64,000 nt of DNA, from positions 13,131 to 77,130 of the forward strand of contig DASVYO010000088.1 of assembly GCA_036392135.1 (NCBI GenBank), given 5' to 3'. Within the stretch, counting starts at the first letter, position 1. The number at the start of each line of letters is the position of its first letter. The notes below the pieces were generated by a model, which did no database searches, was not told where the DNA came from, and worked only from the letters and a program-made list of their open reading frames with translations. The translations under genes were made by a program, and so were the position numbers. This DNA is from Solirubrobacteraceae bacterium. Its GTDB lineage: Bacteria; Actinomycetota; Thermoleophilia; Solirubrobacterales; Solirubrobacteraceae. Positions 4,286-27,988 of the stretch are shown here, one piece after another.

Positions 4286-4762
4286 TCAGGCGCGCCGCCA
4301 CTCGCCCGAGCGCCCGCCCGACTTGCTGAGCAGGGCGACCGAGGCGATCTCGGCGCCGCGCTCCACCCCCTTGACCATGTCGTAGACGGTCAGCGCGGCC
4401 ACGGAGGCGGCCGTCAGAGCCTCCATCTCGACCCCGGTGGGGCCGGTTGTCCGCGCCTCGGCGATCAGCTCGATCGTGCCCGCCTCGACATCGATCTCGC
4501 CCTCCACGCCGACGAACGACAGCGCCAGGGGATGGCACAGGGGGATCAGCTCGGCGGTCCGCTTGGCGGCCTGGATGCCGGCGATCCGGGCCACTCCGAG
4601 CACATCGCCCTTGGGCGCATCGCCGTCGCGCACGCGCGCCGCGGTCTCGCGGCTCACGCGGATCAGGGCTCGCGCCCGCGCCGTGCGGAGGCTGCTCGGC
4701 TTGTCGGCCACGTCGACCATCCGGGCGTGGCCGGCGGCGTCGAGGTGGGTCAGCTCACTCAT
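4286..4762 (-). CDS. moaC: Cyclic pyranopterin monophosphate synthase
   Basis: [51 protein letters not shown]. Start at ATG 4762, overlapping the upstream stop. Confidence 0.95.
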
Positions 4763-5499
4763 CCGGCGGGCGTGTGGGCGTGCCGCGCGGACTCGATCAG
4801 CTCGCGCACCCGGTCGACCTCGCCCTCGCGCAGCAGCTCGATCGGGTCGGGGTCGCCGTTGACGATCCCCTCGAAGAAGGCCTTGCGGTCCTGGTAGGTG
4901 GGCAGTGTCGACTTGGCCCAGCCGCGCGCGTCGTTGAGCATCACGGCCAGCTGGGCGTAGGGCTCCCCGAACAGCTCGGCGATCTCGCGCTTCATTCGCT
5001 TGGCCAGCGCGGGCGAGGCGCCGGCGGTCGAGATGGCGACGGCCAGCGGGCCGGTGCGCACGATCGCCGGCAGGATGAAGTTGCACAGCGGCGGGACGTC
5101 GACCACGTTGACCAGCATCGCCCGCCGCTCGGCGGCGTTGAACACGCTGATGTTGACGTCGGTGTCGTCGGTGGCCGCGATCGCGATCAGCGCGCCCTCG
5201 AGGTCCGTCTCCCGGAACTCGCGTCGGACCCACTCGATTGAGCCCTCGAGGGCCAGATCGACCAGGCCCGGATGGGCCTCGGGCGCGACCAGGGTCACGC
5301 TGGCGTCGCAGGCCAGCAGTCCCTCGACCTTCTCCAGGCCGATCTCGCCGCCGCCGATGACCAGACACCGCCGCCCCGTGAGCTTCAGGCAGGCGATGTA
5401 GAAGGGCGTCTCGAGCATGTCCTTGACGCAGCTCTGATCGCAGATCCCCTTGCGGAACTGGCAGACGCACTCCTTGCCGGCGTAGGCCTGGGCGGGCAT
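4759..5499 (-). CDS. sirC: Precorrin-2 dehydrogenase / sirohydrochlorin ferrochelatase (SirC/Met8p/CysG N-terminal type) with Cys-rich N-terminal extension
   Basis: LVIGGGEIG Rossmann motif, [34 protein letters not shown]. Start ATG 5499 has TAGGCT 7 nt upstream. Confidence 0.85.
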
Positions 5500-5506
5500 G
5501 CGCCTA

Positions 5507-5512
5507 AGCCTA
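5507..5512 (-). promoter_or_regulatory. -10 element (TAGGCT) of a leaderless promoter for the sirC...hemA operon
   Basis: TANNNT hexamer 7 nt upstream of ATG 5499 on the minus strand. Confidence 0.6.
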
Positions 5513-5574
5513 GCCCGTGGGCCGCCGCGGCCCGGCGTCCGCAGGCTGCGCCCACATCGCGGCCCGGGCCACAC

Positions 5575-5622
5575 CCAATCTGGCGCCCACCCCGTCCAGA
5601 TCCGAAAGGTGCGCGCCAGATT
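5575..5622. repeat. REP-like hairpin, related to the repeats at 27800-27912
   Basis: Arms AATCTGGCGC (5577-5586) and GCGCCAGATT (5613-5622) are perfect complements. The loop contains AGATCCG, and the 48-nt unit aligns with 27863-27910. Confidence 0.75.
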
Positions 5623-5688
5623 CCCCTCCACGGCCCGGCGAGCGGGCGCCCCACGAGACAGCCCGGCGACCCGGCGACCCGGGGATCT

Positions 5689-5706
5689 CGGGTGGAGGCC
5701 CACCCG
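5689..5706 (-). terminator. GC-rich hairpin, possible terminator of the aldehyde dehydrogenase gene
   Basis: CGGGTGG-AGGC-CCACCCG 7-bp stem about 30 nt past the ALDH stop; no U-tract. Confidence 0.35.
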
Positions 5707-5738
5707 GACCCTCTCGCCCCCGAGGCCGGCCCAACCGG

Positions 5739-7331
5739 TCAGCGCTTCAGCGCGTCCCGCGCCAGCCGCGAGCCGAGACGCAGCAGCGGCCGGGTGCCCG
5801 CCCGCAGCGCGGCGGCCCGGATCGAGGGGCGCCCGTAGAGGATCGTCGCCGTCTGGCGCAGGGCGCGTCCCAGCGTCTCGTCATAGGGATGCCACCAGGG
5901 GTCGCGCACCTTCGAGGGCTCCCACACGCGCAGCTTCACGTTCACGCATTCGTACAGACCGAACTTCGAATGGGTGCGCCCGAGTCCCGACTCCTTGACC
6001 CCGCCCCACGCGAGCTGGCAGGCCCCGTGGCTGAACATGTGATCGTTGATCCACACCATCCCCGACTGCAGCTCTCCGGCCATGCGCTCGCCCCGCCCCC
6101 GGTCGCTCGTCCAGATCGACGCGCCGAGTCCGAACACGCTGTCATTGGCCAGGGCGACGGCCTCATCCTCGGAGTCGACGATCATGATCGGCAGCACCGG
6201 CCCGAAGGTCTCCTCCCGCATGATCCGCATGTCGTGGCTGACCCCGGTCAGCACGGTGGGGGCGTAGAAGGCGCCCCGCAGGCCGGGCGGCGGGGTGGCC
6301 ACCGGGCCCCCGCACTCGAGCTTGGCGCCGTGGGCGAGCGCATCGTCGACCAGCTCGGCGACCTGGGCGTGCTGCTCGGCGGTGATCATCGGCCCGATCT
6401 CCGTCCGCCAGTCGCGCGGGTCGCCGACCCTCAGCGCCTGGGCTCCGCGGACCACGCCGGTGATGAAGCGCTCCGAGACCTCGCGCATCACGTACACGCG
6501 CTCGATCCCGGCGCAGGTCTGGCCCGCGTTGGCAAACCCGCCCCACAGCGCTCCGGCCACGGCGTGGTCGAGGTTGGCGTCGCCGAGCACGATCATCGGG
6601 TCCTTCCCGCCCAGCTCGAGCACCGAGCCCTTCAGCCGCCGGGCACACGCCTCGCCCACCGCGCGGCCCGTCTCGACCGAGCCGGTGAAGAAGATCTTGG
6701 CCGCGCTCGACTCGACCAGCGCCGAGCCGGTGCCCGGCCCGTGGATGACCCGCACGAGACCGTCCGGGAATCCGGCGCGCTCGAATACGCGCCCGATCCG
6801 GGCCCCGATCAGCGGGGTCAGCGAGGCCGGCTTGAGCACGACGCCGTTGCCGGCCATCAGCGCCAGCGCCACCTCGCCGAAGGGGATGCTCCACGGGTAG
6901 TTCCAGGGCGCGATCACGCCGACCACGCCCAGCGGCTCGTAGGTGAACGCCGACCGCTTGGTCTTCAGGAACAGCTGGGGCATGTCGACCGGCTCGTCGG
7001 CCAGGATCGCCTGGCCCTCCCGGGCGATCCAGTTGAGCGCATCGATCGTGGGCAGGAGCTCCATCGAGAAGGCCTCGTTGCGCGGCTTGCCCTGCTCGGC
7101 CACGATCAGATCCCGGATCTCATCGGCCTCGTCGATCAGCACCTGAGCGGCGCGCCGCATGTAGCGGGCCCGGTCCGGCAGGCGCAGCTGCGACCAGATC
7201 GGCTGCACCTGGGCGACGGCGTCGACCACCGCCTGGACGTCCTCCGGGGCGGTGCTCGGCACCGACCCGAGGCGCGCGCCGGTGCTGGGGCTGAACGATT
7301 CGAGCAACGCGGCTTGCGTCGTCGCGGCCAT
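5739..7331 (-). CDS. Aldehyde dehydrogenase family protein
   Basis: [27 protein letters not shown], catalytic [22 protein letters not shown]-like WGGVKESG. Confidence 0.95.
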
Positions 7332-26896: not shown

Positions 26897-27832
26897 TCAC
26901 CGGGCCGCTCCCAGCATGCGCGCGACCTCGGCGATCACCACCAGCGGCTCCCGCACGAGCTGGTCATAGGTGAAGCGCAGCACCGTCAGGCCGGCGGCCC
27001 GGAGCTGGGTGTCCTTGCGATGGTCGTGCTCGAAGGCCCGATGGGTGGAGTGGAAGCGATACCCGTCGATCTCGACGACCAGGTTCCGGGCCGGCCACCA
27101 GAAGTCCACCTCGTAGCCGGCCACGCGCACGTTGACCTGGGGCGGCGCCAGCTGGGCCTGGCGCACCAACTCCAGGAACAGCTCCTCGGCCTGGGAGCGG
27201 GTGAGCGTGGTCCCGTGCTGTCGCTCGAGCAGGGTCGCGAGCCGGGCCGCGCCCGCGCGCCCGCGCGTCCGGCCCAGCAGCTCCACCAGGTCGTCGGTGC
27301 GCACGATCCGGGCCACCAGCCCGCGGTCGAGGGCCAGCTCGAGCTGGCGCGGGGTGAGCTCCTCGGCTTCATCCAGCAGCGTGCGGGCCGGGGAGGTCAC
27401 CGGAAGCCCCCTGCGGATGCGGATGTCCCGAGGCCGCAGGTCGCGGGCGCGGTGGATGACACACCCGTCAACCCGCCGGTGGGCCCCGTTGGCGACGACA
27501 GCATCGATGGGGCGGGTGGCATCCCTCGGCCGCATGTCCCATATCGACGCCGCGGCGTGATGACTGAGCGCGGCACCGTCCGGGAGCGCCAGCAGCACGG
27601 CCGTCTCCTGGCCCAGTTCGACCGGGCTGGTGTGACCAACGGCAAACACACCGCCAGGAAGCGGGGTGAGCGAGCCGCGCTTCACCGCCCGCGAGATGAC
27701 CTTGTATTCGAGCCCCGCCGCCCGCAGCTGGTGCCGCGCGACCCGTCCGCGCTGAAGCCGGGCGATGGCCGCGATCCTCTCGTCCCGCGTCCCGGAAACG
27801 ACCAATCCTGCGCGCACCCCGAGGACCTTCAC
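26897..27832 (-). CDS. AbiEi-family wHTH + DUF559 (Vsr-like) endonuclease domain protein
   Basis: N-terminal RLQRGRVARHQLRAAG...GVFAVG (AbiEi-type), ALSHHAAA..W, VTSPARTLLD, C-terminal VDFWWP...VEIDG..FH...D..KD..L...G..VLRF. Start is GTG 27832, GTG 27817 or TTG 27805. Confidence 0.85.
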   Translation of the reverse strand: MKVLGVRAGLVVSGTRDERIAAIARLQRGRVARHQLRAAGLEYKVISRAVKRGSLTPLPGGVFAVGHTSPVELGQETAVLLALPDGAALSHHAAASIWDMRPRDATRPIDAVVANGAHRRVDGCVIHRARDLRPRDIRIRRGLPVTSPARTLLDEAEELTPRQLELALDRGLVARIVRTDDLVELLGRTRGRAGAARLATLLERQHGTTLTRSQAEELFLELVRQAQLAPPQVNVRVAGYEVDFWWPARNLVVEIDGYRFHSTHRAFEHDHRKDTQLRAAGLTVLRFTYDQLVREPLVVIAEVARMLGAAR

Positions 27833-27912
27833 GACGTGCGCGCCACGGTGGTCGGAATCCGACCAATCCTGCGCGCACCCCGGAGATCCGCCTGAGGTGC
27901 GCGCAGGATTGG
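27800..27912. repeat. Tandem REP-like palindromic units at the 5' end of the AbiEi-DUF559 gene
   Basis: 21-nt direct repeat GACCAATCCTGCGCGCACCCC at 27800 and 27861. Perfect 17-bp inverted repeat 27863-27879 / 27896-27912. Degenerate right arm GTGCGCGCCACGGTGGTCGGA at 27836-27856. Confidence 0.85.
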
Positions 27913-27988
27913 GCGGTTGGGGCGGCACCCACCGGACTCTGACGCCCTTTTCCGCCCCCACTCCTCCCCAGCTGCCTTTTTTCACACA

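Follow-up and report, generated by a model that had tools for sequence, protein, structure and literature searches.

The 64,000-nt stretch of DNA analysed here (the window) carries, in the spacer between an aldehyde dehydrogenase (ALDH) gene and a sirC-type gene, a 48-nt hairpin that resembles another at 27863-27910. The original prediction took the two to be members of a dispersed REP-like family recognised as a hairpin, in which structure rather than sequence is under selection. The locus thus raises the question of whether the resemblance is real and, if it is, whether the element acts as RNA or as DNA and what might account for its presence in this spacer. The features concerned are as follows.

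5500 to 5738, no strand: ALDH-sirC spacer, from the ALDH stop to the sirC start
5739 to 7331, minus strand: aldehyde dehydrogenase gene (Pfam Aldedh, E=1e-142)
4759 to 5499, minus strand: sirC-type precorrin-2 dehydrogenase gene (NAD_binding_7, Sirohm_synth_M)
5575 to 5622, no strand: palindrome/hairpin, with arms at 5577-5591 and 5608-5622 and a loop at 5592-5607
5568 to 5628, minus strand: full 61-nt unit matched by the family covariance model, R1

The limits of the ALDH and sirC genes were the same in an independent gene call on the identical public contig, and sirC is the first gene in a sirC-moaC-mog run. Positions 5575-5622 read CCAATCTGGCGCCCACCCCGTCCAGATCCGAAAGGTGCGCGCCAGATT, and an inverted-repeat search resolved them into 15-nt arms, complementary at 14 of 15 positions (93%), around a 16-nt loop. 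The comparison with the second site stands as originally described: both 48-nt strings are present, the left 19 nt agree with 27863-27881 at 16 of 19 positions, AGATCCG occurs in both loops, the TG/CA of the one copy and the CT/AG of the other differ in a manner mirrored across the two arms, and the spacer does measure 239 nt. Folded as RNA, the 61-nt stretch reaches -23.9 kcal/mol on the plus strand (z=-5.4) and -29.8 kcal/mol on the minus strand (z=-3.7), a stability attained by none of 200 shuffles. No larger inverted repeat was found around the hairpin; a 249-nt fold of the spacer has a z-score of only -2.5, and the flanking inverted repeats are chance matches of 10-11 nt.

Short hairpins are common in GC-rich genomes, where inverted repeats of GC-only 10-mers recur by chance, and the likeness of 5575-5622 to 27863-27910 might accordingly be a product of nothing more than 71% G+C sequence. 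The original prediction had itself allowed that shuffled sequence of this composition might yield such a match. Against this, the 19-nt left-arm pattern, with up to two mismatches, occurs four times in the window where 0.27 matches are expected, and none of 100 shuffles reached four. Furthermore, an nhmmer profile built from the other 22 units of the family described below recovered 5575-5622 from the entire 3.23 Mb genome at E=3.3e-7 on the minus strand and 1.2e-5 on the plus strand, the next unrelated match in this leave-one-out search appearing only at E of about 1. The 15-nt core of the plus-strand left arm (AATCTGGCGCCCACC) recurs unchanged in units C71a, C35a and C35b; with C71a the identity extends to the full 17-nt arm (CCAATCTGGCGCCCACC), and the loop word CGGATCTG is common to this copy and C50a. 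A chance origin is refuted by the profile and shuffle statistics, and the probability that we would still assign to it is vanishingly small.

The copy is nevertheless the most worn of its kind. The unit scores 51.5 bits against model R1 on the minus strand and 31.8 bits on the plus strand, the lowest score among the 24 units of the genome. No second unit was detected beside it in a 321-nt search, the sole match being the following.

5546 to 5559, plus strand: CTGCGCCCACATCG, a possible arm-core relic and a weak match (E=0.42 in the 321-nt search)

An extra half-site had been proposed here, and CTGCGCCCAC is indeed present at 5546-5555; the 5546-5559 match taken alone is not significant at that E value. 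Its distance to the corresponding arm is 35 nt instead of 61 nt, and it could at most be the remnant of a partner unit lost after a deletion.

We have termed the family to which the hairpin belongs family A. Regular-expression, nhmmer and covariance-model searches of the genome (a 3.23 Mb draft in 175 contigs, 70.6% G+C and 96.6% complete) agree on 24 units of 61 nt at 13 loci, each unit consisting of CCGGCCAATCCTGCGCGCACC, a loop of about 16 nt and GGTGCGCGCCCCAGTGGTCGGTTT. Eleven of the 13 loci are head-to-tail doublets with a 61-nt period, the only singlets being C126 and 5575-5622. Since each unit is itself palindromic, a doublet runs arm, loop, arm', TTT, arm, loop, arm'. The best-kept example lies in the window.

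27798 to 27919, plus strand: best-kept family A doublet, with units at 27798-27858 and 27859-27919

The second unit of this doublet is a perfect 17-bp palindrome, and the minimum-energy fold of the whole is a single long hairpin on both strands. The doublet folds at -75 to -86 kcal/mol, and z-scores for unit and doublet range from -3.7 to -7.9. Loop sequences recur at different loci (C50a resembles C169a, C9b resembles C71a, and C50b, C126 and C120 resemble one another), which indicates that units were copied between loci and did not evolve in place. In the doublet at C120:5960-6093 the two units do not differ even in the loop, and behind them stand the first 12 nt of a third; this suggests a recent tandem duplication and a unit number that may change by slippage.

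All 13 loci fall between genes, as a rule 36-125 nt behind a stop codon and in two cases in a convergent arrangement, which bears out both the predicted dispersal of a REP-like family and the expectation that its copies would avoid genes. The flanking genes are of the ordinary housekeeping kind and have no common function; among them are genes for a Ser/Thr kinase, a D-Ala-D-Ala ligase, an MFS transporter, Mrp/ApbC, an aminotransferase, a CysN-like GTPase, a biotin carboxylase, an isocitrate/isopropylmalate dehydrogenase and MnmA. There was no transposase among the neighbouring genes of the 13 loci and no target-site duplication in their aligned flanks; no empty-site pair could be defined, the relatives being too divergent. 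Other classes of element were considered. A MITE was rejected, there being no duplication in the aligned flanks, no occurrence of the arm motif elsewhere in the genome and no insertion sequence with such ends. In a CRISPR array reading the conserved part would be 45 nt and the variable part about 16 nt, with at most two units per array and 'spacers' that are similar within and between loci, and this too was set aside. An attC reading was rejected on anatomy.

Family A is confined to this species. Covariance-model searches found no match in 24 genomes of the same genus and 16 of the same order, and no true match in the 400 genomes searched from the family or the 400 from the class; two weak class-level matches were GC-rich coding DNA. 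When public genomes and metagenomes were scanned by pattern, a single true outside match emerged, on DASWAI010000062.1; in the metagenome scans family A was absent, one of them returning only a conserved coding 21-mer. DASWAI010000062.1 is a 3.5-kb contig, 99% identical to C114 and C104 of this genome and joining both, which sits in a MAG labelled Gemmatimonadales, where the repeat occurs on no other contig. It is a contig of the same species and has probably been mis-binned. Family A is, then, a young, species-specific dispersed palindromic repeat.

The spacer itself tells the same story. The ALDH-sirC gene order is kept in seven relatives, whose spacers measure 35-160 nt (35-40 nt in three genomes, then about 70, about 100 and up to about 160 nt) against 239 nt here, and on reading their sequences we found the family A element in none of them. 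Orthologous gaps thus lack the element, and short, element-free spacers in the relatives mean that the copy was added in this lineage: the ALDH-sirC spacer gained 5575-5622. The same enlarged spacer contains an imperfect 23-nt direct repeat at 5630-5652 and 5658-5680 (ACGGCCCGGCGAGCGGGCGCCCC and ACAGCCCGGCGACCCGGCGACCC), which together with the singlet forms part of the extra 80-200 nt or so relative to the spacers of relatives.

The hairpin lies 116 nt downstream of the ALDH stop and 75-122 nt upstream of the sirC ATG at 5499, and it is pertinent to ask whether it serves either gene. Close to the latter is a promoter-like element.

5507 to 5512, minus strand: TAGGCT, a -10-like hexamer 7 nt upstream of the sirC ATG

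A TAnnnT box stands 6-8 nt before the sirC ATG in most of the 25 relatives examined (mostly TACCCT, here TAGGCT), which suggests that the sirC mRNA is leaderless and hence would not contain the hairpin. An N-terminal extension of sirC is conserved across the order and, with the TAnnnT box, supports ATG 5499 as the start. One could suppose that the palindrome is a working operator for sirC-moaC-mog, bound by a nuclease paralogue or another regulator, with the gene-less copies elsewhere making up a regulon; it offers two conserved half-sites upstream of the sirC ATG, and this motif is also found across the start of a gene whose product is putatively DNA-binding. However, the palindrome stands upstream of the -35 region of a conserved, apparently leaderless promoter that relatives retain without it, most other copies occur at gene 3' ends or between convergent genes, and the genes flanking them share no function. 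We consider such an operator role highly unlikely. The position upstream of the -35 region also implies that the hairpin would be transcribed only in ALDH read-through, where a stable 3' hairpin would arise as a by-product upstream of the promoter of sirC itself; some incidental effect of this kind is possible.

Selection for the hairpin as RNA would be a different matter. It would make 5575-5622 an intrinsic terminator or 3'-end stabiliser of ALDH that insulates sirC, and family A a set of such hairpins. The location behind the ALDH stop, and that of most family A loci behind stop codons, agrees with this, as do the strong folds of unit (-24 to -30 kcal/mol) and doublet and the presence on the family strand of some G-U-compatible positions. 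The intrinsic terminator class is nonetheless rejected, the stem having no T-run (and its transcript no U-tract), a terminator scan returning 0 sites and the family being of mixed orientation. Indeed, relative to the upstream gene the orientation of family A is sense at three loci, antisense at six, convergent at two and unclear at two, and the more stable strand is unrelated to the direction of transcription. Rfam 15 gave no window match at the gathering score and only sub-threshold noise at the doublet 27798-27919, and relatives do without the hairpin in their orthologous spacers.

A further question is whether pairing, as distinct from sequence, has been conserved. In the family A alignment the mean column identity is 76% and the arm cores are invariant; over 23 units and a 23-pair stem, 76% of cells pair. 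The covariation score was reached in 8 of 500 shuffles, although between 5 and 25% of unconstrained alignments score equally well on this test, and more robust measures gave less (pairs with double changes in 93 of 500 shuffles, further pair types in 269 of 500). The units tested all come from one species, family A having been found in no independent lineage. A sister family from the related genome G008, to which we return below, was similarly weak, its score being reached in 46 of 500 shuffles. Covariation is therefore not convincingly above that of shuffled alignments. At the columns of the TG/CA swap itself (10-12 and 48-50), 16 of the 23 units are unpaired, three have CT/AG pairs and three TG/CA (5575-5622, C35a and C35b), while in C71a and C21b the left-arm TG is uncompensated.

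The original contention that structure rather than sequence is under selection does not survive these results: the arm sequence is conserved, across unrelated loci and not in its pairing alone, the TG/CA swap is confined to this copy and C35, and the covariation is not significant. Quasi-palindromes can show mirrored changes without selection, by descent from a symmetric master copy, and template-switch correction of imperfect inverted repeats is an established mutational mechanism that produces such changes. We infer that the mirrored TG/CA change is the signature of a single symmetric sub-lineage present at two loci and does not reflect recurrent selection on RNA structure. Taken together, mixed orientation, the missing U-tract, the lack of an Rfam match and the conserved arm sequence favour an element that works at the level of DNA, and we hold selection as RNA to be unlikely. 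As a DNA element, 5575-5622 would act as a palindrome of two half-sites, and no local function would be required of it.

What might recognise such a palindrome is suggested by the gene at which the best-kept doublet is found.

26897 to 27805, minus strand: AbiEi-like/DUF559 gene (Vsr-like endonuclease fold), 302 aa, encoding the candidate cognate protein

The gene is 22 kb from the hairpin, and its putative TTG start falls inside the outer CCAA of the doublet 27798-27919. For its C-terminal domain the matches are DUF559 (E=4e-10) and the endonuclease-like protein of PDB 3HRL (E=5e-5), and the product has a faint match to the mobile-intron protein 3R3P (E=0.83); the N-terminus resembles AbiEi_4 weakly (E=0.07, 13.7 bits where the cut-off is 25). 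With a winged-helix-like N-terminus and a PD-(D/E)xK-type domain, this candidate partner would more naturally read double-stranded half-sites. No Y1/RAYT transposase (PF01797) was matched in the genome at E<=0.01, in a draft that is 96.6% complete and by a search that, as a control, gave matches in 6 of 14 known genomes. Our literature search found no paper linking DUF559 to dispersed repeats.

The genome encodes six further AbiEi-like/DUF559 paralogues, one of which (C135) is apparently split by a frameshift, and reading the sequences showed that every paralogue start region has an inverted repeat of its own. A census of perfect inverted repeats with 10-nt arms at three or more loci returned only four palindrome families, A to D, and GC-only low-complexity words. 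Each of the four has one copy lying across a start codon, in every case that of a different AbiEi-like/DUF559 paralogue (at C88, C118, C18 and C99, respectively); no such gene is near the remaining copies. The three families besides A are:

Family B: GGCCGAGAAAGCGG-N9-CCGCTTTCTCGGCC; gene copy at C118:935-971; gene-less copies at C44:9934, C78:13782 and C148:10279
Family C: GGGGTCCCAAAC-N11-GTTTGGGACCCC; gene copy at C18:24520-24554; gene-less copies at C43:3577, C101:14317 and C128:31025
Family D: CTCCATGGATT...AATCCATGGAG; gene copy at about C99:42194; gene-less copies at C113:75531 and C130:51192, with variants at C8:13002 and C50:3935

In families B, C and D the ATG of the paralogue is inside the loop or the right arm of the palindrome. 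Their gene-less copies lie close to stop codons. Family C was found in one of 41 genomes and is species-specific. For the remaining three of the seven paralogues (C22, C80 and C135) the inverted repeats are local only, with no dispersed copies. The tie between palindrome families and the starts of nuclease genes is non-random.

Might the gene-less palindromes simply be what remains where copies of an AbiEi-like/DUF559 gene have been deleted, with no mobility of their own? The gene family is multi-copy and non-syntenic, at 2-11 copies per genome, and the gene-less copies of family D stay similar for some 20 nt into the coding start, as leftovers would. Yet the twelve gene-less loci of family A end sharply at unit borders and occupy spacers of 160-300 nt between intact housekeeping genes, which would call for twelve precise deletions, and no nuclease pseudogene fragment accompanies the gene-less copies, nor is there a remnant at the gene-less loci of G008. 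We judge this explanation highly improbable and return to palindromes that are copied, or kept, in their own right.

The closest orthologue of the 26897-27805 product is encoded in G008 (G008:C9), with 59% amino acid identity and a different gene neighbourhood. Upstream of it (L080, 1290-1450) another repeat, CAGTAAATCGACCACGGC-N5-GCCGTGGTCCGAAAACCTGCGCCCAGCC, is present as 3-4 tandem units of 51 nt; it forms arrays of 2-4 units and occurs at about 17 further loci. Ten of these loci were checked and had no nuclease gene within 1.5 kb. The 51-nt repeat is absent from the present genome. It shares with family A only short words (CCTGCGC, CCCAGTG). It looks like the G008 equivalent of family A, diverged and with another hairpin. 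Five G008 repeat loci map by both flanks to this genome and none coincides with a family A locus, which indicates that the families turn over by insertion and are not inherited at fixed sites.

A second G008 paralogue (G008:C1:761737) pairs with a second doublet family, GACAAATCG-N13-CGATTTGTC, of which imperfect copies lie upstream of the gene and six loci are gene-less (L130, L133 and L135-L138). These doublets are joined by a GCAAACCG...CGGTTTGC linker. The same palindrome is also present in G003 (L132, L134) and G004 (L131), the single G004 copy adjoining a nuclease gene. Genome G005 has a small version of the same pattern of a gene plus dispersed palindromes.

We are fairly confident that 5575-5622 is a gene-less, decayed single unit of the REP/BIME-like family A. 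In the mechanism that we propose, family A would be the cognate recognition site of the AbiEi-like/DUF559 nuclease from 26897-27805, whose gene start, embedded in the best-kept doublet, would have the layout of an autoregulatory operator. That layout is found at the doublet 27798-27919 and at C118, C18 and C99, and not at 5575-5622, which has no such gene adjacent. On these grounds the candidate protein probably binds family A palindromes. A further role for it in copying or maintaining the gene-less copies, like that of RAYT with REPINs, is a suggestion that we advance tentatively, considering it somewhat doubtful. In its broadest form the proposal comprises four orthogonal nuclease-palindrome pairs (A to D) in this genome and at least two others in a related species, in each of which the nuclease would recognise its palindromes and keep them alike or multiply them; this we put forward as a speculation that is more open to doubt than to acceptance.

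Taken alone, 5575-5622 is an ordinary worn repeat, and its value lies in its parent system. What is new about that system is a REP/BIME-like repeat that lacks RAYT and has an AbiEi-like/DUF559 nuclease as its candidate partner; in the closest species that has an orthologue, the repeat has changed along with the gene, and its copies are at different sites. Should such a nuclease both bind and propagate its palindromes, high-GC bacteria would have a second means, through an unrelated enzyme, of achieving the REP/RAYT lifestyle; the nuclease would also be a RAYT-independent counterpart of RAYT in its partnership with REPINs and would give a function to the very large family of uncharacterised genes annotated as 'DUF559 domain-containing'. 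It would further provide naturally orthogonal pairs for protein-DNA recognition and explain the origin of species-specific REP-like repeats.

Among known systems, MIRUs are comparable in being tandem intergenic units of about 50-60 nt, of variable number, in a high-GC bacterium. They are not hairpin palindromes, are oriented with the operon and carry overlapping stop and start codons, and we know of no enzyme gene associated with them. In the BIMEs of enterobacteria, REP/PU units that alternate in orientation are clustered, with conserved linkers between them. The family A array, in which arm, long linker, arm', short linker, arm, long linker and arm' follow one another, is built likewise, and shares with BIMEs a variable number of units (1-2 here, 2-4 in G008) and arrays that lie behind genes; it differs in its unrelated sequence, its phylum and its far smaller number of copies, and nothing in it points to IHF, gyrase or Pol I binding.

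AbiEi antitoxins autoregulate through inverted repeats in their own promoters (PMC7319586). S. agalactiae AbiEi and M. tuberculosis Rv2827c resemble the present case in that the gene for a protein with an AbiEi-like N-terminal DNA-binding domain has a pair of neighbouring inverted repeats across its promoter or start, and the gene-less family A sites copy this doublet layout of AbiEi operators. The resemblance has limits, however: the 26897-27805 product matches AbiEi_4 only at the E value given above, its C-terminal domain has the DUF559 nuclease fold, there is no AbiEii toxin gene, and the operator-like repeats of family A are dispersed through the genome.

A further parallel is that of REP/REPIN-RAYT systems; REP elements with RAYT genes were reportedly described by Nunvar et al. 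in 2010. This genome has no match to a Y1 (RAYT) transposase, and the candidate partner is instead a winged-helix-like protein with a Vsr-like PD-(D/E)xK nuclease domain. Family A doublets are head-to-tail palindromic units of 61 nt and not two inverted REPs around a spacer, their copy number is low (24 units against hundreds), and they stand at the 5' end of the gene alone, with its start codon inside them. A conserved 5' tetranucleotide of the GTAG type, the cleavage signal of REP/REPIN-RAYT systems, is not evident in the alignment. REPIN doublets are tied to a cognate gene that they flank, and singlets are less conserved than doublets (Bertels and Rainey 2011, PMC3116915). Family A conforms to this pattern in several respects, being made up of short imperfect palindromes that are exclusively extragenic, with dominant doublets (11 of 13 loci) that fold as one long hairpin and a more decayed singlet at 5575-5622. 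Moreover, as in REP/REPIN-RAYT systems, the family sequence is species-specific, a single cognate gene stands physically beside its own repeats, and several orthogonal groups of repeats coexist in one genome, each with its own copy of the gene.
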